Shown here piece after piece: positions 2,795-35,467 of a stretch of 36,277 nt of DNA. The translations under genes and the position numbers were made by a program. Source of the DNA: Paramecium tetraurelia (taxonomy: Eukaryota). Position 1 is the first letter of the stretch. The number at the start of each line of letters is the position of its first letter. Under the pieces are notes generated by a model. It searched no databases and was not told where the DNA came from. It was given only the letters and a program-made list of their open reading frames with translations. The stretch is taken from NCBI GenBank assembly GCA_000165425.1, contig CT868007.1, forward strand, positions 248,001 through 284,277, in the 5' to 3' direction.

Positions 2795-5700
2795 ATGTAG
2801 AAAACTGATTTTAACTTCAAAATATGCGCTTGCGGAAAAGTATTTGAACCTTACTCTTCCTTTGAAGCATAAGTTAAATGTGACACTTGTTTAGAAAACA
2901 AAAAATTTTCAACAAATCAAACAGAAAAAGTACTCTTGGATCAATAACAAGAATAATATGCTAATTAAAGTGGTGACAATTAAATTAAATCTATTAGGTA
3001 ATACAAAACAAAAGTAAGAAGATGAAGAATCTATTATAGAATTTGATAAGCCAATTAAATTAAATTCAAATTATGGAAACTATGATCATCATATTGGTAT
3101 TAAAGCCTAATTACAAACATTAGGAAATGCCTTATAAAGTTTAAATAAATATGAAGAATCAAATATTGAACAGGAGAAGGCGATTCAAATTGATCCAAAT
3201 AATTGTTGTGACTACATCAATAAAGGTATTAAAACATCATTACAAATATTAGCAAAAGCTTTAATGAAGATAAATAAATTTGAAGAAGCAATTTATGAAA
3301 TTGATAAGGCAATTTAATTGAATCCAAATGATCCCATCTGTTATAATATGAAAGGTATAAAGCATTATTACAAAAATTAGGAAATTCATTATAAAGTTTA
3401 TATAAATATGAAGAATCAATTACCGAATATGAGAAGGCGATTCAATTAGATTCAAGTAATAGTAACTACCATTAAAATAAAGGTATCAATCTTAAATTAA
3501 AACATTAGCAAAAGCATTACATCAGTTAAAAGATTATGAAGAAGAAGTTATTGAACATGATAAGATATTAAAAGTGACTTAAAATAATCCTGAAAAGGAA
3601 ATTTTTACTAGTATCAAAGCGTTATTTAATAAATTAGGAAATTAATTATATAAATACGAAGAATATGAACAATCAATAATATAAGTTGACAAGGAAATTG
3701 AATAAAATCCAACTAATGCTAATTCATATTATAATAAAGGCATCAATATAAGATTATATCATATAGGATTACTCTTATAAGATTTAAAAATGTTTGATGA
3801 ATCAATTATTTAATTTAAAAAGGCAATTGAAATAAATCCAAATAATGCCATGTACTATAATAAAAAAGGTATAAAGTTATTAATAAATTATTAGGAGATG
3901 TTCTATGCTAGATACATAAATATGAAGAATCAATTATAGAATATAATATGGCAATTTAATTAAATCCAAAATCTCCTACGTACTATTTTCATAAAGGTAT
4001 TTATTTTCTAATGGTTAAATTAGGTAAAGCATTACTAAAATGCAATAAATCAATCATTGAATTTGAAAAGGGAATTGAATTAAATCTAAATGAAGCTAAC
4101 TACTTAAACAAAAAAGGTTTAAATATACAAACAAACTATTTAGGTTTCCCTTTATATAATTTAAACAACAATGAAGAATCAATTATAAAATATGATAAAG
4201 CAATTGAATTAAATCCAAATAATGCTAAATACTATTATAGTAAAGGTTGAAATCTATAAATAATTTAATTAGGAAATGCTTTATACAATTCAAAGAAATA
4301 TGAAGAATCAATTATAGAATATGATAAAGCAATTGAATTAAATCCAAATGATGCTGAATACTATAATAGTAAAGGTTGAAATATATTAATAATTTAAATA
4401 GGATATGCCTTATATGAGTTATATAAATATGAGGAATCAATTATAGAATTTGATAAAGCAATTGAATTAAATCCAAATTATGATGATTACTATAATAGTA
4501 AAGGTTGAAATATTTAAGTAATTAAATTAGGAAATGCTTTATGCAATTAAAAGAAATATGAAGAATCAATTATAGAATATGATAAAGCAATTGAATTAAA
4601 TCCAAATTATGATGATTACTATAATAGTAAAGGTTGAAATCTATAAATAATTTAATTAGGAAATGTTTTATGGAATTTAAAGAAATATGAAGAATCAATT
4701 ATAGAATATGATAAAGCAATTGAATTAAATACAAATTATGATGATTACTATAATAGTAAAGGTTGAAATATATAAATAATTGAATTAGGATTAGCATTAT
4801 AAGAGTTATATAAATATGAAGAATCAATTATAGAATTTGATAAAGCTATTGAATTAAATCATAATTATTCTTAATACTATTGCAACAAAGGTTGAAATCC
4901 ATAAATAATTTAATTAGGATAAGCATTATACAATTTAAAGAAATATGAAGAATCAATTAAAGAATATGATAAAGCAATTGAATTAAAACCAAGCTATGAT
5001 GTTTACTATAACCGTAAAGGTTGAAATATATAAATAATTTAATTAGGATAAGCATTATACTATTTAAAGAAATATGAAGAATCAATTATAGAATTTGATA
5101 AAGCAATTAAATTAAATCCAAATTATGATGATTACTATAATAGTAAAGGTTGAAATATATAAATAATTTAATTAGGATAAGCATTATACAATTTAAAGAA
5201 ATATGAAGAATCAATTATAGAATTTGATAAAGCAATTAAATTAAATCCAAATTATGATGATTACTATAATAGTAAAGGTTGAAATATATAAATAATTTAA
5301 TTAGGATAAGCATTATACTATTTAAAGAAATATGAAGAATCAATTATAGAATTTGATAAAGCAATTAAATTAAATCCAAATTATGATGATTACTATAATA
5401 GTAAAGGTTGAAATATATAAATAATTTAATTAGGATAAGCCTTATACAATTTAAAGAAATATGAAGAATCAATTAAAGAATATGATAAAGCAATTGAATT
5501 AAATCGATATCATGCTGAATACTATGATAATAAAGGTTGAAATATATTAATAATTTAAATAGGATATGCCTTATACAATTTAAAAAAATATGAAGAATCA
5601 ATTAAAGAATATGATAAAGCAATTGAATTAAAACCAAGCTATGATGTTTACTATAATAGTAAAGGTTGAAATATATAAATAATTTAATTAGGATAAGCAT

Positions 5701-8700
5701 TATACTATTTAAAGAAATGTGAAGAATCAATTATAGAATTTGATAAAGCTATTGAATTAAATCCAAATGATGATGTTTAATATAATTGTAAAGGTTGAAA
5801 TATATAAATAATTGAATTAGGATTAGCATTATAAGAGTTTTATAAATATGAAGAATCAATTATAGAATTTGATAAAGCTATTGAATTAAATCAAAATTTA
5901 TTCTTAATACTATTGCAATAAAGGTTGAAATCCATAAATAATTTAATTAGGATAAGCATTAATGCAATTTAAAGAAATATGAAGAATCAATTATAGAATA
6001 TGATAAAGCAATTGAATTAAATCCAAATTATGATGATTACTATAATAGTAAAGGTTGAAATATATAAATAATTGAATTAGGATAAGCATTATACAATTTA
6101 AAGAAATATGAAGAATCAATTATAGAATTTGATAAAGCAATTAAATTAAATCCAAATTATGATGATTACTATAATAGATAAAGGTTGAAATATATAAATA
6201 ATTTAATTAGGATAAGCATTATAAAATTTAAAGAAATATGAAGAATCAATAATAGAATTTGATAAAGCAATTGAATTAAATCCAAATGATGATGATTACT
6301 ATAATTGTAAAGGTTGAAATATATAAATAATTTAATTAGGATAAGCATTATACAATTTAAAGAAATATGAAGAATCAATTAAAGAATATGATAAAGCAAT
6401 TGAATTAAAACCAAGCTATGATGTTTACTATAACCGTAAAGGTTGAAATATATAAATAATTTAATTAGGATAAGCCTTAATACTATTTAAAGAAATATGA
6501 AGAATCAATTATAGAATTTGATAAAGCAATTAAATTAAATCCAAATTATGATGATTACTATAATAGTAAAGGTTGAAATATATAAATAATTTAATTAGGA
6601 TAAGCATTATAAAATTTAAAGAAATATGAAGAATCAATAATAGAATTTGATAAGGCAATTGAATTAAATCCAAATTATGATGATTACTATAATAGTAAAG
6701 GTTGAAATATATAAATAATTGAATTAGGATTAGCATTATAAGAGTTATATAAATATGAAGAATCAATTATAGAATTTGATAAAGCTATTGAATTAAATCA
6801 TAATTATTCTTAATACTATTGCAATAAAGGTTGAAATCCATAAATAATTTAATTAGGATAAGCATTATACAATTTAAAGAAATATGAAGAATCAATTAAA
6901 GAATATGATAAAGCAATTGAATTAAAACCAAGCTATGATGTTTACTATAACCGTAAAGGTTGAAATATATAAATAATTTAATTAGGATAAGCATTATACT
7001 ATTTAAAGAAATATGAAGAATCAATTATAGAATTTGATAAAGCAATTAAATTAAATCAAAATTATTCCTTAATACTATTGCAATAAAGGTTGAAATATTT
7101 AAGTAATTAAATTAGGAAATGCTTTATGCAATTTAAAGAAATATGAAGAATCAATTATAGAATATGATAAAGCAATTGAATTAAATCCAAATTATGATGA
7201 TTACTATAATAGTAAAGGTTGAAATATATAAATAATTGAATTAGGATTAGCATTATAAGAGTTATATAAATATGAAGAATCAATTATAGAATTTGATAAA
7301 GCAATTAAATTAAATCCAAATTATGATGATTACTATAATAGTAAAGGTTGAAATATATAAATAATTTAATTAGGATAAGCATTATAAAATTTAAAGAAAT
7401 ATGAAGAATCAATTATAGAATTTGATAAAGCAATTGAATTAAATCCAAATTATGATGATTACTATAATAGTAAAGGTTGAAATATTTAAGTAATTAAATT
7501 AGGAAATGCTTTATGCAATTAAAAGAAATATGAAGAATCAATTATAGAATATGATAAAGCAATTGAATTAAATCCAAATTATGCTGAATACTATAATAGT
7601 AAAGGTTGAAATATATTAATAATTTAAATAGGATATGCCTTATACAATTTAAAAAAATATGAAGAATCAATTATAGAATATGATAAAGCAATTGAATTAA
7701 ATCCAAATGATGATGATTACTATAATATTAAAGGTTGAAATATTTAAGTAATTAAATTAGGAAATGCTTTATGCAATTTAAAGAAATATGAAGAATCAAT
7801 TATAGAATATGATAAAGCAATTGAATTAAATCCAAATTATGATGATTACTATAATAGTAAAGGTTGAAATTATATAAATAATTGAATTAGGATTAGCATT
7901 ATAAGAGTTTTATAAATATGAAGAATCAATTATAGAATTTGATAAAGCTATTGAATTAAATCAAAATTATTCTTAATACTATTGCAATAAAGGTTGAAAT
8001 CCATAAATAATTTAATTAGGATAAGCATTATGCAATTTAAAGAAATATGAAGAATCAATTATAGAATATGATAAAGCAATTGAATTAAATCCAAATTATG
8101 ATGATTACTATAATAGTAAAGGTTGAAATATATAAATAATTGAATTAGGATTAGCATTATAAGAGTTTTATAAATATGAAGAATCAATTATAGAATTTGA
8201 TAAAGCTATTGAATTAAATCAAAATTATTCTTAATACTATTGCAATAAAGGTTGAAATCTATAAATAATTTAATTAGGATAAGCCTTATTCAATTTAAAG
8301 AAATATGAAGAATCAATTATAGAATTTGATAAAGCAATTAAATTAAATCCAAATGATGCTGACTCCCATTTTAATAAAGGTGTTAACAATGAAGTATTTA
8401 AATAGGACAAGCCTTATACATGATAGACAATTTAGAAGAAACAATTTTTGAATTTGATTAAGCAATTTAAATAGATCCGAAAATAGCAATTTATTACATT
8501 TATAAAGGTTATTCTTAGTGATATTGATTAGGAAATTCGTTATTAGATTTGAATCGATTTTAGCCATCTATTTTTTCACAAGATGAGTTACTGAATTTAC
8601 CTCATCAATAATTATTATCAAAACAAATTCATGTTTAAAATTACTTATATAATTAGAATATGTCTAATCAAAATTATAGCCACTAAATGATTTAAAGTAA

Positions 8701-8734
8701 TAGTGAATTTATAAATGAATATTTAATTAAATGA
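2795..8734 (+). CDS. Multi-TPR protein (about 44 repeats) with an N-terminal CxC..CxxC motif; one intron per repeat; five +1 exonic insertions in this assembly
   Basis: Starts MQKTDFNFKICACGKVFEPYSSFEAQVKCDTC. Repeated 102-nt exons encode e.g. GQALYNLKKYEESIIEFDKAIELNPNYDDYYNSK, matching the TPR consensus (Y4, G8, A/S20, Y/F24, A27, P32). Phase-1 introns start at 2973, 3097, 3226, 3355, 3483, 3611, 3740, 3869, 3997, 4117, 4246...8251, 8380, 8508. TGA at 8732-8734. Confidence 0.9.
4144..8379 (+). repeat. Near-perfect tandem array of 129-bp units (27-nt intron + 102-nt TPR exon), with 32 GTTGAAAT..TAG introns
   Basis: Intron starts at 4246, 4375, 4504, 4633, 4762, 4891, 5020 ... 8122, 8251. 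Spacing is 129, or 130 where a base is inserted. Confidence 0.97.
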
Positions 8735-9879
8735 ATCAAGCCTATTAACATTTATTTGATATTCAAATAAGATACCTCTTATCCTTAAATTTTAATGCAC
8801 AAATTTATTATTAATTAAAATATTAAAAAGCGAAAATAATTTTAGTATCATTTATTTGATACGCTTCATTTAAGATTAAACAAAAAATAGTCAGCATTAT
8901 TGTTAAATTATATAAAGTGTTTCTTTTATAATATACTCGATATTTGTGAATGCATATGATTCTAGAACTTATAAATTTCAATTTAAAATTATATAATAAT
9001 TAATAAATAATAATATTATCTAACTAAAAGTCTGAATACTAAACTCTTAGTTTATTATTGAGCTGGAAAATATATCTGTTAAATTATCAAATTTGATTTA
9101 GATTGATAATATTTTACCTTCACCATAAATTCTGTTGAATTAGCATATTGCAATTAATCATAAAAGCATAATGTTCGATTTTATCTTACATATTTAAAAT
9201 ATTTTCTCTTTATTTGATCTCTTCTTGTTTTATAGAATTTATTTTCTAGTAAAATTTAACTTTCCAATAATAGACTATAGTAATCTTTTCAATATAAATT
9301 AGTTCTCACCATTTAGATTTAATAAGATTAAAAATAGTTTCATGCAAATTTTTAAATCAAAAGCAAATAATATTGATTTAGATGATAACGACATTGAATG
9401 AAAATGACTAATTTTAGTTCTCATGAAAAGCACAAATAATATGTCCACAAATACTTTTCTAAAAACCTTTCAAAATTTATAGAAATCTGCGAATCAAATA
9501 AATACCTAAGCAAACTACTGAAATAAACACTTTGTATCTTCAAAAATGCAAAATAAAAATAAAATTTATTGCTACAATTTAATGTGAGAATTGAATAGAT
9601 AGAACTATAATTCAAATAAAACATACATTTTATTCAGATTAAATAATTTATATAATTTATAATATATTAGCTTATAATCAGCGAAATGTCTGTTATTGTA
9701 ATACGTAAAAGCATAACAATAGATGAGTATTCAAAAATTAATATTTATATTAAAATGTCTGGTATTTAAATTACATTAAGAAAACGATATTCTAAATTCT
9801 ATAGTTTTTGAGAGGGAACCAATCCAAATTATGCTATCAAATAATTACAAAATTTAGATTTATTAAGTAATTAAAGTTA

Positions 9880-12550: not shown

Positions 12551-15319
12551 ATGATTGCTGAAGTTTAGAGTAGTGAAGATCTATTAGTAATGTGTAGGAT
12601 ATGTGAGAAATAAGTATGAGTGTGGTATAACATTTGTAGACAGATGCTTCATTGATTGAGAATCACCTAGTGAATTGCTAACAAATCTTTGAGGCTAGAA
12701 AGCATTTGCATCAATTGGATGTGCAAATTCAAAAATTAGCAGAGTAGGCTCAGAACAGCTTTCGTACAATAAATACAAAATATCAAATCCATAAGTCCAA
12801 GCAGGCTAGATATACAAACCAGGATAATCGTGGAATGAGGAGCAGTGCACCGTTGAAATTGAATCAACCAGATGATTGTGCAAGTGAGGAGACAGGTTCA
12901 AGAACAAACAAGGTTAGTGCAAAGCTGTGTATAATTTTAGTGCGCAGTCAAATCGAGGTTTGCGAACTTAGGAGCAAGTTTAGCAAATAACGAGGCCTCC
13001 CAAGAGTAGACTTAGTAGGAATGTGTGACTTAGACTGTTTAATAGTCCATTACGGGAGAGGATTTCGATCAAATAATGAAACAATAGATAAAGTTATCAA
13101 AGAAAATAGAATAATAGAAACAAGGAAATAAGTTTGTTTATTCTCCAGAAATCAAACAAATAAGTTCTCCGATATCGAATGGTATGGGAAGTCCATTTTC
13201 TCTTGAGTACTTAATTATGAATATATAATAGTGATAACACTGAAATTTTGAAAGATTTGAGACTACAGTTAGACTCTCTGTCCATCATCACTAAATATAC
13301 TGAAGAAACTCTTAGAACAAATCATGGTACTCAATCAATTTAATTTGATCTAAAAATACAAGTGGATTTGTTCAACATCAAACACACTCTCTAAAAGGAG
13401 GTCCAAGATCTAGTGAAACTGACTTTGAAACTGATTGAAGTACAATTGAATCATTATCTCATTTTAGGAGAAGGTGCAATGTACTTAAAAAATATCGAGA
13501 TTGCAGAAACTGATTTCGGAGGAAGAGAAAATAGAAAATCTTACATCTCCACGTCTCAAGATCAACAATGTAGAATTAGGAAATCGTAGGACTTCATTAG
13601 GAAATTCTCTATAAGGACATTTTGAAATGCTCAAGAACAGTGGTAATGGAGCCAAATGGTTGAATAAGTAAAACATAGTTCCGAATTCTGAACCCAGTAA
13701 GTAGACTTAATCGAAAACCTTCACTGAAGGTGTAGGAAAGGATTGTATCTTTTAGAAATGTCTGAGTGAATCTGAAGATGGAGGATAGAGTAGCAGTGCA
13801 TCAGATTCAGAGGGTGTGGTGTCTAAGGAAATCAAAAAAAATATTACTAAGAAATCACTGGAAGAATCTTTTGAAATGGATAACTATGTAAAATAATCAA
13901 AAAGCAATATGATTTCATTTAAGGATTTGAATCAACATCAGGTGGATAATCAGTGTGAGTTTGATAATGAGAAGGAACAGAAGGTTAAGGGGTATTACAG
14001 TGATGGAGATTTCAAGACTACTAAATTGGTGAAGAATAAATAATTGTAAATCATAACATTATTGATATTTTAGATTGAATGTTACTCTTTAGGACTTTGA
14101 ATTTATCCAGGTGTTGGGTGTCGGAGCATTTGGAGCAGTGTGGTTGGTTTGTAAGAAGAAGACTAAGGATTATTATGCAATGAAGGTGATAGATTGTAGA
14201 AATAAGAATATGAATGAAATTCAGAATTTAAGAGCTGAAAAAAATGTATTTGAAATCTTAGAAGGTGATTTTGTAGTAAAAGCATTTTATTCATTTATTT
14301 AAGACAATTGTTTATTGTTCTTGTTAGAATATATGATGGGGGGTGATTTCAGTTAAGTTCTTTATCAATATGGACGTATTTCAGAATCAGTGGCTAAATT
14401 TTATTTGGCTGAGTTGCTCTTAGCAATTGAATCATTACACAAGAAAAGAATAATTCACAGAGATTTGAAACCACAAAATATCTTATTGGATGCACAGGGT
14501 CATCTAAAGTTGGCTGATTTTGGGTTATCTGAAATCGCATTAGTGTAAAAGATTAAGGAAGGGAAAGACGGATTCAATAGTTCCATTGATCCTGAGGCAT
14601 TACCTATGAATGTTTCAAAGAGGAACATCAAAATGAAAAGCAATATTGAATTTCATCTACAAAAGACTGCTACTAAGACAAGTATTTAAGAGAGAACTCA
14701 ATCAGGAAAAAGATAGAATAGAATAATTGGAACTCCCGATTACATTCCCCCTGAAGTCATCTGTGGATAATCTATATCGAACTTTTCAATAGATTGGTGG
14801 GCTTTTGGAGTGATAGCATATGAATTTTTAGTAGGCATTCCACCATTCAATGATTCTAGCATTCCGAAGGTGTTTGAGAACATAATGAATGGGAGCATCG
14901 AATGGCCAGAGATAGGATGTGGAGAAGACTCGATGAGTTAGGAGGCATATGAGTTAATTAATTCATTATTAGAACCTTAATACCATAAGAGACTTGGAGA
15001 GAAAGGTGCTGAAGAAGTTAAATCTCATAAGTTCTTCAATGCAGTTGATTGGAATAACATAAGGAATCAGGAGGCTCCCATGATTCCAATACGAGATTTA
15101 GACTAATTGGAGGAGGAAGAGAGCAATATCACGAAGAAGAAGAATGAGGAGGTGAAAATGAAGGATAGATTGCAATCAGTGCAAGTCTCCCATGATGGAA
15201 ACCTAGATGATGTAGCCAATCTAACCAGAGTTGATCTATTGGCCAAGATCAGTTAGAAGGATGCTGAAAATGTCATGAAAAAAAGATCAATTCGGAAGAC
15301 TATTTAACAATTTCTATGA
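12551..15319 (+). CDS. AGC Ser/Thr kinase of the Rim15/Greatwall/MAST/IRE type with an N-terminal zinc-finger motif
   Basis: [34 protein letters not shown] gives the CxxC..H..C motif seen in IRE/Rim15. Kinase motifs [29 protein letters not shown], a long insert before [11 protein letters not shown], and DWWAFG are present, plus an AGC tail. Five tiny introns (about 12614, 12913, 13208, 13440, 14046). TGA at 15317-15319. Confidence 0.92.
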
Positions 15320-15332
15320 TTAATATATACTC

Positions 15333-18300
15333 ATGTTAAAGTACTTTCATGAATTATCTGATGAATATTCCAAAAGTACATACAATCCATAAACCATGGC
15401 TGGGTGCATCGAGGGTTTGTATGAGTATTTGAAACAAGAGAAGAATGAGGATCAATTCGTCATCAATAATGGAGGGATAAAACTTATCAATCAATCTTAA
15501 TGGCATTTCGAAAAGCAATATTCGATCTGCTTAACATTCAATCCTCAAGGGGATGGGACGATCTTCTAATTTTCATCATCTCATATCGATGGCAAGAGAA
15601 TCATAGCCAATGGAGTTCATTGTTACTTAATTGGTGGTGTAGTCTTCTACAAGAATGTTTACCAGAGGTTCACTCTAGAAAGAGTTCTTGTGGAAGACTA
15701 CTCTTCCAATAATCAGTTGGGTGAAGTCGTAATGAATGGATGGAATGAAATAATTATTTCTCATGAATAAGGAAAACTATACTCCAGACCCAAGTTTATA
15801 TATTCAATTAATCAGATTAAAAATACGATACAGATTGAGTATCCCAAAATCAGGAATCAAAATCTGGAGATGCTCTATTTCCAGAACATATAATGCAAAG
15901 TCAAAGAAATCTCAGTTTACAATGAAGTTGGCGACCAGCATTTGAAATCTCCTTTTTATTAAATCTACCCCCTATACGATCCTCACTAGACGAAGAGAGT
16001 CAACGATAGAATTCAGAACGTAATCTATGAACTTTAGGGAGACACCAAGATGACATCTTCATTATAAAAATACGATTTTGTAGAATACGGCGGTATTAAA
16101 ATTTTAATTCCACTTTTTGATCTAATTCAATATTACGATCATTCTTAAATTGATGACCTATTTAAAATCTTACTCTATACTTTGTTACAGGATAGTCAAA
16201 TCAACAAGAATTAAATTGTCGAAATGAAACTATTCCAACAGATAGCATAGATCATCAATGTAGACATCCCCAATCTAAGTTAAATTTTGCAGATCAAACA
16301 AAAAGTTGAGGATCAAGATATACTCAATCAACTATTGTTGTTAATTATTGATGTCAATTTCATCAAAAGAATCACCGATTAATAGTAATACTGCATTTTA
16401 TTACAGCAATTCTATATCAGTGATCATCAGAAATACTTACAAGTCACTCCCATCTAATATTTGGCTCAGTTATTGGTGAGTGTCAATCAGAAGAGTCTAA
16501 TCCAAGATCAAATTCTATAAATTATGATTTACTCCTGCTAATATAACTTTAATACATTGAAGGACTAATTCAAACTATTTTTAAAGGTCGCCGAAGCCTC
16601 ATCAATCGAACTCAAAATCAAAGCCATCTAAAGTGCAACCAGGTTGGTTTCTGACTTATTCAGAGATGATCAAGAGAATTTCATTGTATTCAGAAATCAT
16701 AACATTCAAAATAAGATCCTAAATGACATCTTTCTTCTACTCTAGACTGATAGCATGGATTGTTTGGTGGCGACCATCACCTTGTTAGGATAAATGCTCT
16801 ATGGCACCAAGGACCTATTAAGTCAAGGCATGATCTCTTATATTTCTAAGGCGATCTGTGTAAACAATAACTTTGACAATCTATTGAATGCATTAACTCA
16901 ATTACTAAAGATTAACTGCTTGTGTGTTGAAATTCTGTAGCATCTATACTCTTAGACTAAATAACAAAATATTCTGGATTACTATTTCAATTACGTCAAG
17001 AAAATTAGCATTGAATAATAATAACTCATACTTTAATAACACTCCATTTGGTTTTTGGATTAATTGAAGATCGAATAAAACGAAAGACTTCTTTAGATTT
17101 TTATGCATCTTCTAGATTAGAATCCTCAATATCTGAGTCAAACTTTGATTCATTAACAAATTCGATAAGATGTGCAAACACTTTTGGTGATTGTCACAGA
17201 AGTGATTGAGAAGTTTAATGAAGAGCAAATATTTCAAGTACAGTAGATAATGTTCTAAATATACTTCTCAGTGCAATCGTTTAAGAATTTTGAAGGATTT
17301 TTAACTAAATTAATTAAGTATATAATATATCTAGAAAATGAGCAAGAGTTATCAAAAATAGTTGAACAAAAAGAACTACCTTTTGGCATTCAAAAGATCA
17401 TCAACTTGAGTTGCCCAATTGACAAGTTGAAAGAATGGTTATTCTATTTCACCAAGCTTTTTGAATAAACACAGTATCTGAATACAGAAACAAGTGAACT
17501 CTTCATGATCCAAATAGTTGAACTGCTTAAAGCAATCCAATCCTAAACTTAGGATCAGTAAATAAAGGAGGTTATCGAATATTTCTTCACTCAAAATGTG
17601 CTAATTCTCTAATCACTTTCAGAGCAACAAGTGCAAGTCTTTGATTCAATTAAATTTCAGTAAGACTTTTAGGCTTTTCAGGAATCTTTGTTGCTTAAGT
17701 GGACTCAAGAATAATAATAGATCAAAATGACACAATCAGAACAATTATCAAAATTAACAGATGAAATTAATTATGCTGCTGCATCGATGCAAGTGTCAGT
17801 GTACAAGTTAATGAACAAGACTCGAAAGATTAGATAGAGATGGTGCAAACTTTGGCATAATCTACGTATCACCGTGTATAGACCAAAAGATTGCAGATTC
17901 CAAGTAGATGAATAAATCGATCATGATTACAAATTCAAAGAGAATCCTTATTACACCAATAAAATTGAGAAATACATCAATAAGTATTATTCACGTCCCA
18001 TTTTAAAAGTGAAGTTTAAGAAGAACCCTGAGTTTGAGAATGACGCATAAGTGCAGTTGGAAAAGAAACAACAATACAAATGCTTTTGGTTGAAGAGCTT
18101 ATACTTAAAGCAAGGGGGCGTTACAATAGGAGATGAAAAAATAACATTCTCCTATTACTCCTATACCTAAAAGGCGAATCATATAACTTTGTTGCCTCAC
18201 ACAATACCAAATCACAAGCCATTTAAGAAATCGTGGAGGAGGGATTAAATTAGGTGGCTGCATGAAAGGATTTATATCAGAAATAGAAATGCCATTGAAA

Positions 18301-20208
18301 TCATCTTCAAGGATGGAGAGTCCCTGTACTTGATATTTTAGGACGAGGGATTGAAGGAAGAGATTATTGAGAAGTTGAAAATACAACCCAAATAATGTGA
18401 TTTTAATAAGGTTAGCAACTTCAAGTATTTGATGTATCTGAATTTCCTATCTTGTCGTTCTTACATCGATTTCACTAGATATCCAGTGTTTCCATGGGTT
18501 TTAAAAGGAAATGCATCAGATTTTGATGACAATGATATAGCATCAATACAGAATGAGATCAATTACAGAGATCTTTCTTTACCAATAGGAGCTTGTGGAA
18601 GTGAAGTCAGATTAGATTAATTCATCAAGAGATTCGAAAATGAGTAGTTTTATTACGGAACACATTATTCTAGTCAGGCATTGGTGTCTCAATATTTGGT
18701 ACGATTGAGTCCATTTACAGAGGCTGCAATATCAATCTAGGATGGTAAATTCGATATTCCAGATCGAATGTTTAGATCGATCATGAAGTCATGGATAGAT
18801 TGCAATAATGAAATGGCTGACGTGAGAGAATTGACTCCTGAATTCTTTTATTTGCCTGAAGCCTTTATAAACATCAATGCCCATAATTTTGGTAAGTTGC
18901 AAAGTAGTTAAGTCGTAAACAATGTGCAATTGCCACACTACTCCAATAAGAATCCATTTTATTATGTCGCCTAGAATATGATAGCATTAGAAAGTGAGTA
19001 TGCTATTAAGATTGAATGAATGGATTGACTTGATTTGGGGATACAAATAGCAAGGAAATGCTGCTGTCGATTCCTTCAATGTGTTTTATCCACTAACTTA
19101 CTCTAATTTTGATGAAGGGAGTATAGAAATCAATGAATTAGCAATGGAAACTCAAATTGCTCATTTTGGATAAACACCAGAGTAACTGTTTTATAAGCCG
19201 CATGCTCAAAAAAATGAAGTAGTTGATAAGACTTAGTGGTAGGCGGCAAAGAATAAAAAGTCATAAAGTAAATTGATCTATTTAATTTGTAATAAGAACA
19301 AAGTAGTTAGCATTCAGGAAGATTTCACTTTAATCTAATGGTAGATTGTTAAAAATTAATAACAGTTTTAAATTGAGAAACAAGTGTAATTACCTAGAAT
19401 TCATTTTGATGCTATGATCAAATATGTATTACCACCAATATTAGTATTGATTGAATAGTCAACCGTATTATTCGGTGGGAATAACAATGGAACACTTCTA
19501 TACTAGTACTTAGACAATTTGAAGGTGTAGGGAGTGATCGAATTGGAAAGTGAGATAATCAACAATCATTGCACTGTGACCGTTCTAGAGTCAAATAAAC
19601 AATAAAATATAGTGATACTTGGAACCAATAAGGGTTTGGTTTATTATTATAGCAAGATTCTGTAAAATAAATAGGATATAAAATAAGAGGAATTACTAAA
19701 GGGCAAATATGTGATCTATGACACAACCTCGCAAATCAATTCAATCACGATTTCAGAATAACTCACCATCTTTTGTGTTGGAACTCAAGACGGAACGATA
19801 TTCTTATATAATTTGTATAATCGCACTCTTTACAGATTTATAAATCATCCAAAAAGACTGCCTATTTATTATCTAGCATTAAGTTATTCTCCATTGCCTT
19901 GTATTTTATTTAGTTCCCATGATGAACGGGTTGTAGCATATTCAATAAATGGATTCTTGCTACAATTACTGTAAGTCAAAGGAAATATAGAATACATTTA
20001 AATCAAGAAATCACCTATAAATACCTTAGTATAGCATTTATTATTAAATTGATAGGTTGTAATCACTGACAATAACGTCTTTGAATATAGACTGCCATTT
20101 TTAGATAGACTGTCAATTGTCTCGTCCCAAATGTGTACAAGATTTGTTTAGGCAACAAAACAAATTTCTATTTATGGTTGTAAATCAGGTGATCTGCGTG
20201 TATTTTGA
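15333..20208 (+). CDS. BEACH-domain protein (ConA-like N-terminus, helical region, PH, BEACH, WD40) with an apparent frameshift at about 19010
   Basis: SNFKYLMYLNFLSCRSYIDFTRYPVFPWVL, RDLSLPIGA, YGTHYSS, GKFDIPDRMF, DVRELTPEFFYLPE, WIDLIWGYKQQG, FGQTPEQLF, then WD40-like strands. TGA at 20206-20208. Confidence 0.9.
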
Positions 20209-20342: not shown

Positions 20343-23300
20343 TCAATCTTATGAAAAGATACGCTAGTCAACTGTTAATCCAAACTCTCCATCTGATGTT
20401 CCAAATGCTAAAATTGTTCTGTCTGGTGACAAAGCAAAAGAACTAATATCGTTCATTGATTGTTAGCAATCAGTCAATTATATTTCATTTCTTTTCTGCA
20501 AAAAGGGAGTTGTCAACATTAATATTTTCTTTTCCATGCACAACGGTAACACCTATTAAAATATAAAAAAAACATACAATAATATCAGTTAACTTTGAAT
20601 CTTTAACGACTTTGAGATGTCCTTAATTCACAATATATTATTTTAATTCAAGATGTGCCAAGAATTGCCCATTAATGCTATATGAATAAATATTTTTGTT
20701 TTCGTAAAATGCTATTCCATATAATGGAGTACAATAACTACAAACTTTGCTAATGGGCAAACCCTTAGGATGTCTATAACTTCTTAAGTATTTGCCAGAC
20801 CATTAATTATACATGTGAATCCAACCATCACTAGAACAAGTTATTACAACTTTGAGATCATTACATATAAATATATCCGTAATAGATTATTCGTGATGAT
20901 GATGCTTACTAATTGGAATGTATGAGTTATTTAACACTTTATATATAATAAGAGTGCCATCCTTACTACCAGTAGCCAATATTCTCATTTTGTAATCAAA
21001 TCTCATTACTGTTATAGTGTGTTCTTATTCGAATCTCTATTCAGAGATGATACCATTATTATAAATAAGCAGTCTTCCATCCCATATGCCTCCGATCAAT
21101 ACTTATTTTCCTCTATTTAAAACAGGGAGTTCATCATAATTACAAGTCCAATCAAATAGATTTTAGTTTTCATCCATAAATTTCCCAAAATTGATGGGTT
21201 GCTCTTTCTAATTAGTAAGATCAAATTTGTTATCTTTTAAATCTAATTTAATAGTAGCACATTCTCCATTCCGACGAATAATCCAAACTTTGTTATCACT
21301 TGAGAAATGTATTCTAATAATTGATTTGCTTCTCTAATAATTTGATGACTAAGGTTGTGGATTATTTTGTTTTTATCGAAGGATTCTCTTTTCTATTTTT
21401 TCATCAACAATTCTAAAAACAATTTTTTATTTTCCTCTGGCAATGTGAGCTCTATCCCAAATTTAACTAGGACATTAACCAAAATGAATTGCTTGAGATT
21501 CCAATGATATCTTTTGTTTTTCATTCTTGATTGAATCCCAATCTATAGAATTTTCATATGTCAAATAATAAAATGTATTTAGAGCTTTGACTGCTTCTTC
21601 TCCCTTTTGTTTATATCCAAAAATTAAATCAATCCAATTGCAAATATGCTATGAAACATAATCACTTTCCAATTCCATTCTGTGAGCACAAATGAACAAA
21701 TAGGGGTTTTATTAAGTCCAAAAAGGCAATTCTACATTGTTTACTCGCTACCCCAGTTTACTATAATCCATAGTCATACTTTGTTAAATTAAGAAACATT
21801 TCAGGCAAATAGAAGAATTCAGGTATCAATTCTCTGACATCACTCAATTCTTCGACTGCATTCCGATATGTCTCAATGAATGAGAAGAATAGACGATCTG
21901 CTAAATCAAACTTGCCTGATTGTAATTCCTTGGCTCCATCAGAAAACGGCTTCAATCTAATGAGATAATGGAATATGATTGCTGGACTTGAATAATGACT
22001 CCCATAGTGAAATTGTGGAACCTTATTAAAATGATCTATCATGTTGTATCTCTATTCAAACACCTCGATCCTATCTTTAGTACCCAAAGCACCCATGCTT
22101 TTAGTTAAATCGCGATATTTATGCAATTACTCGCCATCATTCATGATCCACGGAAACACTGGATATTAGGTCAGATCCTTATTACTCCTTCCAGAAATTT
22201 TATTGACTTTCATCAAGTATTCAAAAGTCGTGATCTTATAATTATACCACTTATTCATAGCCTTACTCTCGAACATGACACTCACTGGATCTAATTTACC
22301 GGATTAAATTCTGGGCTTTAGATTGATAGTTCGTTGTTTCTTCAGAGAAATCAATTTCTCTATCACTTTTTGATGATCTCCATTTTAAAAATTGAATACA
22401 AGTGTACTACCTTCCAATAGAGTCAACTCCAAGGATGTCCATCTACCAATGTATCTTCTAAATTAAATATCGTAGATTTATTCCAGATCCCACTACTTCA
22501 CCAATTAGGAGTCTTCAGGTACTCTAAATTTGATCAGACTCTAATGGGTTTCTTTTTGAGTTATGGATTCAAAATAAAAGATCAAATGCGTATCACTTAT
22601 TCGTAAAGATCCTATTCTAACTGTTAATGTCTTGATCCACTGGACTCTGTGAAGAATCACTTCGTCTTGTTCATGTTATTATGAGTAGAATGGGATGATG
22701 GTGTCAAATATGATTTCATGTATTTTCTTTCTTTGTCTCTCTGGTTATTTCTTATCATAGTCAGCCAAATTCATTATTCTAGTACTTTACTATTGAGATT
22801 GCATAATGTTATCAATTTGGGGATAATCATACAACTTAGGTTTGAGTAAGGGTCTGGATTTCTATTTGGTTTCATATTTCCACATCTTCCATGTAAATCT
22901 AAATTAAATTCTTTGTATTACATCTAATTTTATACGATGTTGTCATAATGCATATCTATCGACGCAAATGGCTTATCGATTTATGCCTTGAACTCTGGAT
23001 GAGCCCACCATTGATTGAATACACGGACTCTGTTGAATGACTTCTTAAACATGTATCTGGCTTGTCTCATATAGATTTATTCTGAGTCTATCCTCTGTAT
23101 TTTTTAATCATACGAGTAGGTTGACGATGATGATATCCTATATGTTATATATTTTAATGAATTTACATCTATGAAAACAAGACTTCCTCAATTCCTTGTC
23201 GCTATGATTACAATCTATCCTCTAAGGTTTTCTTCTTTTAAGAGAAAATTCTGTAGGATTCTTCAAAATCACACTTGGTTTTTAGGTAATACTCTTCATT

Positions 23301-26300
23301 CATGAAGAATGATTACTATATTTTTTACAATAACGTTTGATTTTCCACAAAAACTTGCTTTGCTGCTATCATTTTCTCCATAATCAATTTATTATTTAAT
23401 TTGAGGGACTTGGTTTCAACAACATCAAAGATGTGTGAACTGTCTTTTCTGATTAAATCATTGAGCATTTTCATTAAAAACAATTTGTGTTGTTTGTACC
23501 CTTCAAAAATGAGAGCTTAGAAAGACTCATTCTTATTTAAAATCTGAGTAAAACAATCCACATACACAATCAAAAACTTAAATGAGTAGAACAAGCAATT
23601 CTTCACAATCTGCAGTAATTCCTACTTGATCTCCTTATCGTAATTGATCTCTTTTATTTTATCCTCCATTTAATACAGAAATATGAAATGCGATCCAATA
23701 ATCGAATACACTACTTTATCTTGTGATTCCTCGATCTCTTTGTCCCTTAAAGTCTCCGATGCTATAATTAAAGTTCTAACTAATTTATCGAGTGTATTCA
23801 ATATCACCTGCAATTGCTTGATGTTTTCACTGCTCTGCACATTGAAGGCGAAGTATTCAGCATTCAATTACAGAAAGAGTTAACACACTTAGACGAAGAT
23901 GGGGGATTGACCTTATTCTAACCCTATATCGAATTCAAACATCATTGCAGCGAATGTTTTCTATGATTCTGTGGGATTCTTCTACTCCAAAAGACCTAAA
24001 ATTCCTTTTTAAACAATCTGATAATCATCCAAGTAACTAATTATTTGTGTCGAGAATTTGCCACAAAATTGATTCACTATGTCACAGATATTCACAATAA
24101 GAATGTGATCCACCCATTGTATAATTCCAAATTATTGCTTCCATTCTAGGGATATATTGGAATAATATTTACTTTTAGGCATTTCTTATTGCGAAATGGT
24201 TAACTAAAATGCAATAGGGGAGAACTTATGGAATAAATAGTAATGCTCATTTTCACTCTCATTCTCAATAGTTCTTGGATCAGCAGTCACTAGTCGGAAT
24301 GTTTCAAAAATAACAGAATATAAGTTGACCCAAAAGGTTGAAAATAAATCCAATTTATAACAATCCCTAATTGATTATATGAAAAATAATTACGAGAAAT
24401 TAGAGAGCAACTGCTTGTATATCAATCTCATCAATAATTAGGTTGCCTACTGATTAATCTGTTCTCCATTAATCTCTTCCAAAACTCTGCAATAACTCTA
24501 TAATTGAGCCAATCGCTGAAACCCATTCTTTTCGTTCTGAATACCAGCTTTGATCACATTGCAATATAGTTTCAATCCACTATCCCACACCCAGAATTCA
24601 AACTAAGCCAACTCTCTAATATTGTATTGGTTTTAGATTTCCAAGAGAGTCTTTAAGATCCACCAATGAAACTCCTCATTATTTAATAGAAAAATGGCAC
24701 TGGCTTGATTCCATTTAATCAGCATACATAAATCTTACATAATGCGACCCTTGACTGAATCCACACAATATTCGAAATAACTAATCAAAAGAGACAATCC
24801 ACCATCAGATTTAATGATAAGATTTTCATCTAAAATCAGTGTATCCGAATTGGTCTTTCCAACTCTAGTTTTGAGCATCCATTCCATAATCGCAACGTAT
24901 AGAGGTTCATAATCAATAATCCTTCTATTTGCCTAAACAATGTTTTTGTTCTGAATAGCAGGCTGCTTCTTCTTTTCCTCAACAAAATTCTATTGTTCCT
25001 CTTATTAATGGAAGACTAAAGCTTGATTTACTAATGGTTTTCTAGGTTGGAAATCATCATCTTCATCGTCTGAGTAAGCCTCTTGCACCTCAACTGCAGC
25101 GCTGTTACCTAGAGTATGTGCAATCCAATTAGCGATTTCTTTTTCATTTGGAGATTAATTGATGCGAATACTCTCTGCTATCAACTTGATGCAACTAGTT
25201 TTGACATCTGGACAGGAACATGTTGTTAGTAGATTCAATAGCATTTGCATCACTTCTTCTTGGATTAGAATCTGAGATATGGGATTATTACTCTTGGTCT
25301 CGTATTGAAATAATCCTTGTAGCTTTTTGAGTAGTAGTTGGTAAAAACAAGGAGAGCATTTTAATGTGAAGACTCTCGCAATGTCTATGATGTTGGATTT
25401 CTCAATTTTGGATTGTGATTGAAATAATTTATTATGGAGGATGGCGTCAATAATATCTAATAACTGTAAACATAACTGATACTTAAGTAGGAATCTATCA
25501 ATTAAGCGTAGGGGATGGTAGGTAATTAGAAGTTGGTATAACCCATTTGATTCGCATGTTCTTGGCAGCATAATCTATTCTTCGGATCAATGTCGTAGAT
25601 CAAAATCTCGAGTATTTTACCGATTCCGAAAATCGATATACAAAATTCAGGATTATCATTATATATCATTCGAATGAATTTTAAGTAGTCTTCTATGATT
25701 GAAAAGTTCTCTAGTTTATAAATTTATATTCTCCACAATAAATTGCAAATGAATTGCTATTTCAACTTCGTATCCTGAATGGAATTGTGCAATTGTGAGA
25801 GCAATTCTATAGTTTGATTGTTGATCATGTCAAGTCCAGAATCATTTAGTTTAAGGGCTATCAAACTTAAATATTCAGTTCGGATCGCATCTTGCTATGT
25901 TTCTGGTCTGGTCTTGATGATTTAACAGAATAGAGTCAATAGTTCGTTCAGCAATGAATCATAAGGTTAGATTTTAATAAATAGTAATAGAGGAACAAAG
26001 TTTTCAATTCTACAGAATTAAGAAAACTGCTATTTTTAAGTTATTCTTAAGTAGGAACCGCTGAATTATTGCAATGCCCCATCAAATTTATTTATTGGAT
26101 CTGTGATAAAATTGGCTCTGGCTCTCAGTGGAGTATAACATAAAACTAGTTTATTATTCCCATGGCATTTATGTAAATTCCTTAGGTGATCATTGGATTA
26201 AATACCCAGGTCTTTGTCACCGCAAGTTAAATCACTATAGGCATAATAGTAGTTAATACTTTCCATCAAATCCATCATTGTAAATTAACACAGAAGTGAC

Positions 26301-27285
26301 ATAACCATAAAAATTAGTAAAAAATTGGAACTCAATGACAAGAGAATCGTTTGAGATTTGAGGAAAATCGATTTTGATTTCCCGAAGTTATTGATTGCCA
26401 CAAGTCAAATATAAGTAATACGATTCCTGCATAAAGAACTTTTTGGATTAAATCTGGATGCTCAGCGATGACCATTCTTGATAGGGAATTTCAATCAAAC
26501 TTATTGGAACTTCGTGATTTGGGGCTGTTTTATAATTAGTAATAAAAATACAATTCAGATCCACATATTGATAAACCAATTTGTTGCCATTTAAAATAAA
26601 CTGACACCCTTTTTTTTTATCAGACATTAAGTACATAATTTTAGTTTCAACTTCTGATTTTATTGGTATTGGATAGAGCCAAGTTTATAGGGAAATGCCT
26701 TTACCAAAGAGCCATTTCATTTCTCTAGTGTCTACAACTAGTCCACTGTTGATGTAATTGAAGTAGAATGAGGCATATGGAGATTCATAACGAAATTCTG
26801 CGAAAACTTTCTATAAAATGAAAATCAGTTTGTACTTATAATAGTGATATGAATCTCTAAACTTTTTCATTTGTTAGTTAGGAATTGTACATTTGATTTT
26901 TGATGTAGATAAACATGCCTTTGAAATTCCGCCTTGTCAATGTTATAGATCTCAAAAACCAATTGATGATCCTAAATAATTATTGTGTATGCTGAAAATA
27001 TAGTAAAGGTAATACATGTTCATTTGTCAAACACAATTCCAATAGCAAATCTACAATCTGCTCATTTTAATTGTGTATTAATGTTAATGCTTACAATGGG
27101 GTGCATTGTAATAATTATTTCTCTAAATGATCGTAAAATTGCTATTAATCTTCTAAAGACAGTTAATCGACAGATTGTAATGCCTTTAAAAGGTAATCAG
27201 CTCTTCTAACTATCTTATTTTGTTTATAGTGTTCAATCAGAGCTGGCCTGAATTGATCCTCAAAAATGGCATCAATTAATTACAT
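20343..27285 (-). CDS. Large BEACH-domain protein, neurobeachin/Lvs-like (ConA-like, ARM-like, PH, BEACH, WD40)
   Basis: ATG at 27285 (MQLIDAIFEDQFRPAL). ConA-like KWLFGKGISLQTWLYP. BEACH motifs [72 protein letters not shown]. Stop TGA at 20345-20343. Internal introns were not all traced. Confidence 0.92.
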
Positions 27286-35317: not shown

Positions 35318-35467
35318 NNNNNNNNNNNNNNNNNNNNNNNNNNNNNNNNNNNNNNNNNNNNNNNNNNNNNNNNNNNNNNNNNNNNNNNNNNNNNNNNNNN
35401 NNNNNNNNNNNNNNNNNNNNNNNNNNNNNNNNNNNNNNNNNNNNNNNNNNNNNNNNNNNNNNNNNNN
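35318..35467. other. Assembly gap (150 N)
   Basis: Run of N. Confidence 1.

Follow-up and report, generated by a model that had tools for sequence, protein, structure and literature searches.

Variation in a tandem array of TPR exons in Paramecium tetraurelia is concentrated at ligand-groove positions

When a gene is built of dozens of nearly identical exons, which of its residues differ, and has selection made them differ? We address this question for a tetratricopeptide repeat (TPR) gene of Paramecium tetraurelia, contained in a stretch of 36,277 nucleotides (nt) of assembly GCA_000165425.1 (contig CT868007.1, positions 248,001 to 284,277, forward strand), hereafter the window, whose coordinates are used throughout. 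The gene carries 32 near-identical TPR exons at 4273–8379 (+ strand, 129-bp period), and an initial annotation of this array proposed that variation among the units sits at the positions lining the peptide-binding groove, that it reflects diversifying selection on binding specificity, and that an intron in every repeat allows exon reshuffling to create new binding faces. We find that the variation is indeed concentrated at groove positions, that changes there exceed those at neutral reference sites, and that nothing marks the intron as a site of reshuffling.

The window is AT-rich (18–35% GC). Tandem Repeats Finder places a period of 129 bp over 3022–8478 (34 copies, 87% matches) within a looser 41-copy array, and direct parsing resolves this period into a 102-nt exon and a 27-nt intron with borders G/GT...TAG/GA. 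Under code 6 (TAA/TAG = Gln), each exon of the array encodes G8, positions 9–34 of one TPR and then positions 1–7 of the next. Exon length is 102 nt in 27 of the 32 exons and 103 nt in the other five, and all array introns are phase 1, splitting the Gly8 codon between its first and second bases without exception; constant exon length and a single intron phase are the signature of exon-per-repeat arrays. Many units are exact copies of one another, and the array contains 26 different 129-nt units and 22 different exon proteins. Their TPR identity is clear. G8, S20 and A27 are each present in 32/32 units and P32 in 24/32, with the 102-nt exon as the period, and exon residues 1–26 align to positions 9–34 of the Pfam models TPR_1 and TPR_2. 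A single 33-residue exon passes the cut-offs of TPR_11 (32.7 bits, cut-off 26.8) and TPR_2 (27.9, cut-off 27) and falls just under that of TPR_1 (25.0, cut-off 27.8). Among solved sequences in the PDB, the designed consensus TPRs CTPR3 and CTPR8 (8-repeat) come nearest, followed by SGTA, STI1 and TOM70. Judged by its periodicity, these sequence neighbours and the literature, the protein is predicted to be almost wholly a canonical TPR solenoid with a superhelical fold.

The residue lists given by the initial annotation are correct for the 32 units: D/S/A at position 1, D/Q/V/E at 2, N/C/D/F at 5, S/N/R/C/I at 6, Q/N/L/Y at 9, Y/Q/C/W/F at 12 and N/E/Y at 13, with PNY, PND, HNY, QNY, PSY or RYH, plus TNY, at positions 32–34. 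So is its description of the helix-B core as near-invariant, since K16, E18, E19, S20, I21, E23, D25, K26, A27, I28 and L30 are found in 32/32 units and Y17 in 31/32; invariant positions overall are 7, 8, 11, 16, 18–21, 23, 25–28 and 30. Per-site entropy under code 6 is uneven and weighted towards the groove, ranking 12 (1.79), 9 (1.71), 6 (1.69), 2 (1.66), 13 (1.32), 32 (1.25), 1 (1.20) and 5 (1.08), followed by 24, 14, 34, 29, 15, 33, 22 and 31; of these, positions 14, 15, 22, 24, 29 and 31 had not been listed before. To avoid circularity, we took the groove set from the literature rather than from the array. Magliery and Regan report that TPRs vary most at 2, 5, 9, 12, 13, 33 and 34, each of which lies on the concave face, and that 2, 5, 6, 9, 12 and 13 contact the ligand in HOP (Magliery and Regan, 2005, PMC1261162), and the set {2, 5, 6, 9, 12, 13, 33, 34} was fixed beforehand from that source. 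It holds 57% of the total entropy in 24% of positions (entropy above that of the 25 remaining codons, p = 7e-5 by Mann-Whitney test) and, with 8 of the 33 codons, accounts for 27 of the 47 minimum nonsynonymous changes (p = 1e-5 by permutation). In helix A the variable residues cluster to within ~65 degrees of a single face (variability moment 0.49, permutation p = 0.0024), and the same periodicity test applied to helix B gives no one-face order (p = 0.72). The proposed concentration at groove positions is therefore borne out by the share of entropy, by the share of nonsynonymous changes and by the single variable face of helix A.

This focus is not peculiar to the Paramecium gene. A search with the exon profile returned 22,819 proteins at E <= 0.001, and among the best 150 of these we examined the 98 with at least 8 ungapped repeats. 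Mean groove-set entropy exceeds that of the remaining positions in 98/98 of these long arrays, the eight most variable positions overlap the groove set by a median of 5 (1.9 expected by chance), and the entropy profile of the window array correlates with the mean profile of the 98 (Spearman 0.73). Among the arrays listed, 15 are as uniform as that of the window (mean identity >= 0.8) and have the same focus. The pattern is therefore general to TPR arrays and does not point to the intron; groove-focused variation is the ordinary pattern, reported for TPRs by Magliery and Regan (PMC1261162), and no new mechanism. What is somewhat unusual here is the variability of P32 (entropy 1.25 versus 0.41 in the other arrays) and, likewise, of position 6. 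Ten of the best 150 records were inspected: one cluster was archaeal, none was labelled ciliate and most carried no organism label. No orthologue of the gene was evident among the best profile matches, the few named relatives being prokaryotic, and a degenerate helix-B DNA pattern searched in metagenome contigs gave 0 matches.

As a test for selection, we compared the rate of change at groove codons with that at neutral references, which in this single genome comprise 16.3 synonymous sites and 27 intron sites against 20.8 groove nonsynonymous sites. Pairwise means by the Nei-Gojobori method give a proportion of nonsynonymous differences (pN) of 0.283 in the groove and 0.048 elsewhere, a proportion of synonymous differences (pS) of 0.130, and an intron nucleotide diversity (pi) of 0.070, or 0.087 minus the splice-site bases; "elsewhere" denotes the 23 codons outside the ten positions of the initial annotation for Nei-Gojobori, and the 25 outside the groove set for the count methods. 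Tree-free minimum counts are 27 groove nonsynonymous, 11 synonymous and 8 intron changes, corresponding to 1.30, 0.67 and 0.30 per site, with 0.32 for other nonsynonymous sites. When the 26 different units are placed on a maximum-likelihood tree, parsimony counts 46 groove, 17 synonymous and 15 intron changes, or 2.21, 1.04 and 0.56 per site, with 0.50 for the other class. Groove changes exceed synonymous ones at p = 0.043 (minimum counts) and p = 0.004 (tree), and synonymous plus intron changes at p = 2e-4 and 1e-6, respectively (one-sided binomial). The groove rate is thus about twice the synonymous and about three times the synonymous-plus-intron rate (ratios 1.9–3.0).

The age of the differences qualifies this excess. 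When the links of a minimum spanning tree are split by age, the youngest (<= 3 nt apart, n = 11) carry 18 differences, of which 5 are groove nonsynonymous, 5 other nonsynonymous, 5 synonymous and 3 intronic, so that the groove rate of 0.24 per site is close to the 0.18 of synonymous plus intron sites (p = 0.42, 5 versus 8 changes). The older links show 2.40 groove changes per site against a neutral ~0.69 (p = 3e-8), in a count that visits the head of one unit type twice, via mosaic units. Diversifying selection, as originally proposed, thus finds support in the pooled data and in the old splits but not among the recent changes, and without a groove excess among the youngest links there is no support for ongoing diversification. 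The excess sits in the differences that define a few unit types, for example L9-Q12-E13-Y15 together with S1-Q2-C5-N6, some of whose codons have changed at two or three bases (three for N to C at position 5; DD to SQ at positions 1–2 likewise a multi-base change) beside introns that differ at 1–2 of 27 bases. Past bursts of positive selection, or old differences protected while conversion homogenised the rest, fit this observation equally well. Either origin implies that the differences between unit types matter, and neither indicates an ongoing arms race.

Exact duplicates of single units and of blocks of two, at offsets of 11, 15 and 16 units, speak for growth by amplification. The initial annotation was right that an intron at Gly8 separates residues 2/5/6 from residues 9/12/13, and this placement was the basis of its proposal that reshuffling of exons yields new combinations of half-faces. 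We defined a head type (positions 9–15) and a tail type (positions 32–34 plus 1–7) for each unit and measured their association by mutual information. Within one exon, across helix B, head and tail are associated at z = 3.4; from a tail to the next head, across the intron, the association is about equal (z = 3.0). The intron variant itself is linked to the head of the following exon at z = 7.8 and to the preceding tail at z = 3.1. Site by site, the mean association across helix B is 0.17 and that across the intron lower, at 0.08, but a single type accounts for this difference, which disappears when types are compared. Two mosaic exons were recognised, one at 7245 with the head of one type on the body of another and one at 6986 with the reverse arrangement, and both have their breakpoints in the invariant helix-B stretch, not in the intron. 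We find no specific support for exon reshuffling at the intron: it is carried along with the module, and nothing marks it as the site of exchange, although it may slightly enlarge the target for exchange between the two halves of helix A.

The 27-nt segments are introns. All 32 amplified introns (4246–8277, + strand; the first at 4246–4272, the last at 8251–8277; six sequence variants) begin GTTGAAAT and end TAG, and GGT TGA results if they are retained. Retention brings an in-frame TGA in 33 of the 43 introns of the gene (the 32 amplified ones and the 24-nt last intron), and in 32 of the 37 whose length is a multiple of three. TGA can be taken as a stop in this window because it is absent from neighbouring frames as long as 1,246 and 839 codons. 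Paramecium is described as having tiny introns of ~25 bp, those of length 3n being loaded with in-frame stops (PMC5014332), and the TGA of the retained array introns beside TGA-free neighbours matches this behaviour. Twenty public sequencing runs from 14 studies contain the stretch, and contigs of four were compared: X20, recorded as RNA; X19, RNA by guess; and X1 and X3, of DNA type. The X20 and X19 contigs join exon to exon at 6183 to 6211, 6571 to 6599 and 7992 to 8020, whereas the X1 and X3 contigs keep entire introns, for example at 4245–4320, 8113–8201 and 8246–8319. Because DNA contigs retain these segments and RNA-type contigs lack them, they are introns and not germline-only eliminated DNA, and the gene is expressed and spliced. 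The X1/X3 contigs have almost no cover over 2904–3900 and none over 6372–6575, with loose ends at 2754, 2771 and 4250; these holes are not interpretable. The gene upstream has candidate GTA...TAG introns of 29 nt each at 1636–1664 and 2101–2129, and tiny introns are therefore general in this genome rather than peculiar to the TPR gene.

The whole gene model runs from 2795 to 8735 on the + strand, with 44 exons and 43 introns from ATG to a TGA at ~8733. After five exon insertions are dropped, the spliced model forms one open frame of 1,593 codons under code 6, and its introns measure 27 nt in 36 cases, 26 nt in four, and 24, 25 and 28 nt in one each. The first exon (2795–2972, start codon putative) encodes ~59 N-terminal residues with a CxC...CxxC motif, which could bind zinc. 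Older, diverged TPR units follow at 2998–4245, in exons of 99, 102, 102, 102, 231, 102, 102, 93 and 102 nt separated by introns of 26–27 nt, none with an in-frame TGA. The 231-nt exon (3509–3739) consists of two TPR units fused without an intron between them, and the next intron (3740–3766) begins with GC rather than GT. Downstream of the array, a final diverged TPR exon (8406–8507) and a last exon (8532–8735) encoding a 66-residue Q/N-rich tail that ends at the TGA complete the model. The predicted product would carry ~43 TPRs, the first ten or so diverged, plus the short N-terminal piece and the Q/N-rich tail. Neither terminal exon matches a Pfam family at E <= 0.01, and this search of the two exons found no attached signalling domain such as NB-ARC, ROCO or a kinase; the 66 residues of the last exon, searched against longer proteins, gave no homologue at E <= 0.001.

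All six insertions and deletions in the array are +1 insertions, five in exons and one in an intron, and the inserted base was removed computationally from the affected units for all counts. They lie at 5897 (exon 5821–5923, a unit otherwise identical to those at 7891 and 8149), 5961 (exon 5951–6053, otherwise identical to the unit at 8020), 6178 (exon 6081–6183), 6479 (exon 6469–6571, at the same unit position as 5961), 7065 (mosaic exon 6986–7088) and 7871 (intron 7863–7890, hence of 28 nt). At 7065 the sole X1 contig, of depth 4.3, omits one letter, and at 6178 an X19 contig joined to exon 6211 has a tail without the extra base. Compared with intact sister units, the frameshifted ones differ by 0–2 substitutions, and three are identical. 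The window also holds two BEACH/PH-BEACH/WD40 genes lying tail to tail (14066–20052, + strand; 20485–26404, – strand), and both switch frame within a contiguous Pfam BEACH match that leaves no room for an intron: one at 18982–19019 (+), near 19005–19015, where 19 nt separate the codons of a conserved Y and a conserved W, the other at ~21740–21760 (–), near 21750, in a GGGG run. These breaks are probably one-base assembly errors. The six array insertions probably are too, because both BEACH neighbours are also frameshifted, and because the affected units are near-identical to intact sisters, all the changes are +1 and dropping five bases restores one frame. Insertions 5961 and 6479 share a TTA/T context ~10 nt into the exon; their common position may be coincidence (~1 in 10 by chance) or reflect the same error-prone context. 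They also lie near exon 5' ends, where TPR genes of P. tetraurelia are reported to bear germline internal eliminated sequences (IESs) (PMC6771405).

We think it probable that this expressed, spliced gene encodes a TPR solenoid of ~1,590 residues, that it grew by tandem amplification of a module, and that selection created or preserved the groove differences. In this genome TGA would be the sole stop codon and introns would measure ~25–29 nt. The array would have expanded as a 129-bp module of one 102-nt exon plus one 27-nt phase-1 intron in the Gly8 codon, copied singly or in blocks of two by unequal crossing-over or gene conversion. Purifying selection and homogenisation would have kept the packing positions and helix B near-identical, leaving a few unit types distinguished by a single face of helix A and by the loop after it, at what are concave-groove positions in solved TPR domains. 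Because the type-defining differences exceed neutral divergence, we infer that selection created or preserved them. Successive repeats could then offer differing contacts along a long binding groove, and the product may be a long cytosolic TPR superhelix, a uniform scaffold serving as a platform for extended or multiple partners.

Several observations pull the other way and temper this reading. The neutral-like youngest links have been described. The placement of the variable residues on the concave face derives from the literature and helical periodicity. Neutral sites are few, constraint may also act on the tiny introns and on AT-biased third positions, and the tree-free test against synonymous sites alone is weak (p = 0.043). 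Multi-nucleotide codon changes were counted base by base, recombination inflates the tree-based counts, and the rates come from one array in one genome. The read evidence on the frameshifts is thin, namely the depth-4.3 contig and one RNA-type contig, and the X19 tail lacking the 6178 base could derive from a sister unit. Moreover, the X20 contig covering 4916–5011 and spliced into 4918 has an upstream tail unlike the preceding exon of the window, which suggests either a different arrangement of units (the label of this run names another organism) or an assembler chimera.

Among competing explanations of the groove differences, relaxed constraint is one to take seriously, though we consider it rather unlikely. 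It would have the helix-A face drift freely and a few old types be amplified recently, the ratio of nonsynonymous to synonymous rates (omega) above 1 being an artefact of constrained or homogenised references. The positions most variable here are the same in all 98 other arrays and in TPRs at large (PMC1261162), the youngest links change at a near-neutral rate in the groove and at 0.08 per site at other nonsynonymous sites, the weak test against synonymous sites has been mentioned, and exact duplicates imply few independent events, all of which agrees with drift. Pure relaxation is nevertheless disfavoured because it cannot raise a rate above neutral, and two methods put the groove at about three times the synonymous-plus-intron rate, with multi-base type differences beside introns that hardly differ. 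The full model of the initial annotation, in which diversifying selection is ongoing and half-faces are reshuffled at the Gly8 intron, seems to us improbable. In its favour, 13 head types, 14 tail types and 21 helix-A combinations are observed; omega exceeds 1 in deep splits, the intron widens the recombination target between the halves, and precedents are described for Ectocarpus TPR/LRR exons (PMC3341825) and for the 90-bp leucine-rich repeat (LRR) exons of Tetrahymena (PMC6564038). But association across the intron is no weaker than across helix B, intron variants go closely with the head that follows, both recognisable mosaics break in helix B, recent changes look neutral, and the other long arrays, examined as protein records, share the pattern. 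A still bolder idea, which we would call speculative and do not expect to hold, is a combinatorial recognition solenoid whose helix-A half-cassettes, in the heads, tails and combinations just counted, are re-assorted by exchanges in the helix-B and intron spacers, with somatic variation if a germline IES lies at each exon start. If true, it would be a ciliate counterpart of the repeat-receptor diversification of jawless vertebrates or of that proposed for brown algae.

Two further explanations concern the gene itself. TGA is read as sense in some ciliates, and 129 being 3 x 43, the frame would persist if there were no introns at all, TGA encoded an amino acid and the repeat were a 43-residue TPR with a 9-residue linker. 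This is contradicted by RNA-type contigs that lack exactly the 27 nt, by invariant GT...TAG borders, by long neighbouring frames that wholly avoid TGA and by array-edge introns of 24–26 nt (five cases not a multiple of 3), and we give it almost no credence. That the array is a decaying pseudogene, its five exon frameshifts real and its variation partly decay, would account for 103-nt exons in 5 of 32 cases and for insertions whose 5:1 distribution between exons and introns fits the length ratio, as expected without selection against frameshifts; at four of the five exon sites no contig was seen backing the in-frame version. We nonetheless judge decay quite improbable. An invariant helix B and an omega of 0.44 outside the ten positions of the initial annotation speak of constraint, spliced RNA-type contigs cover units in the affected zone, the frameshifted units lie 0–2 substitutions from intact twins, and one-base frame breaks in both BEACH neighbours point to the assembly.

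Elsewhere in the window, a protein-kinase frame at 14066–15319 (+ strand) directly precedes the + strand BEACH gene and overlaps its first frame (15279 onward), possibly a kinase-BEACH fusion or one further frame break. A run of 150 N occupies 35318–35467.

The repeats of TAL effectors and PPR proteins are likewise near-identical two-helix units of ~34–35 residues that differ at a few specificity positions. In the window array, however, about ten positions vary rather than two, and it shows no sign of nucleic-acid binding or of a one-repeat-one-letter code. With generic long TPR arrays and designed consensus TPRs (PDB 1na0, 8bu0) it shares the 34-residue helix-turn-helix with G8, a small residue at 20, A27 and P32, and variation on the ligand face at 2, 5, 9, 12, 13, 33 and 34 (and 6); the difference is that the window gene is eukaryotic, has ~43 repeats and carries an intron in each. 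In gene structure it resembles the NB-ARC-TPR genes of Ectocarpus, which also encode one TPR per exon and for which exon duplication and shuffling are described, with site models indicating positive selection on the repeat exons (Zambounis et al., 2012, PMC3341825). Those exons encode 42 residues (TPR plus linker) on an NB-ARC protein and are separated by long introns (PMC3341825), whereas in the window gene no NB-ARC or other signalling domain was found and the intron falls within helix A, at Gly8.

Two further comparisons come from ciliates. TPR genes of P. tetraurelia are described as series of "TPR coding exons" prone to repeat expansion, with a function stated to be unknown (Vitali et al., 2019, PMC6771405), and as the most IES-dense genes of the species, with IESs at exon 5' ends (PMC6771405; see also Arnaiz et al., 2012, PMC3464196); no extra TA-bounded segments were found in the window. 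The window gene shares the serial TPR exons of this family (PMC6771405), but these papers treat germline IESs and IES retention, not residue variation (PMC6771405, PMC3464196), and in the open-access literature we found no account of the variable residues of TPR exon arrays in ciliates. A binding face under selection is a testable lead on the function of this large family. The array is also a clean natural case of a consensus-like TPR scaffold whose units differ almost exclusively on the binding face, which helps in thinking about how long solenoids come to be specific. The LRR genes of Tetrahymena (2019, PMC6564038) are likewise made of exon-plus-intron modules of constant exon length and phase, with a codon split at the junctions. 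Their modules are LRRs of 90 bp in phase 2 with introns of ~120–260 bp, compared with TPRs of 102 bp in phase 1 with 27-nt introns in the window gene, and the figure 102 is absent from the main text of that paper (PMC6564038). Among ciliate repeat genes, growth by exon-plus-intron modules is thus not confined to the LRRs of Tetrahymena.

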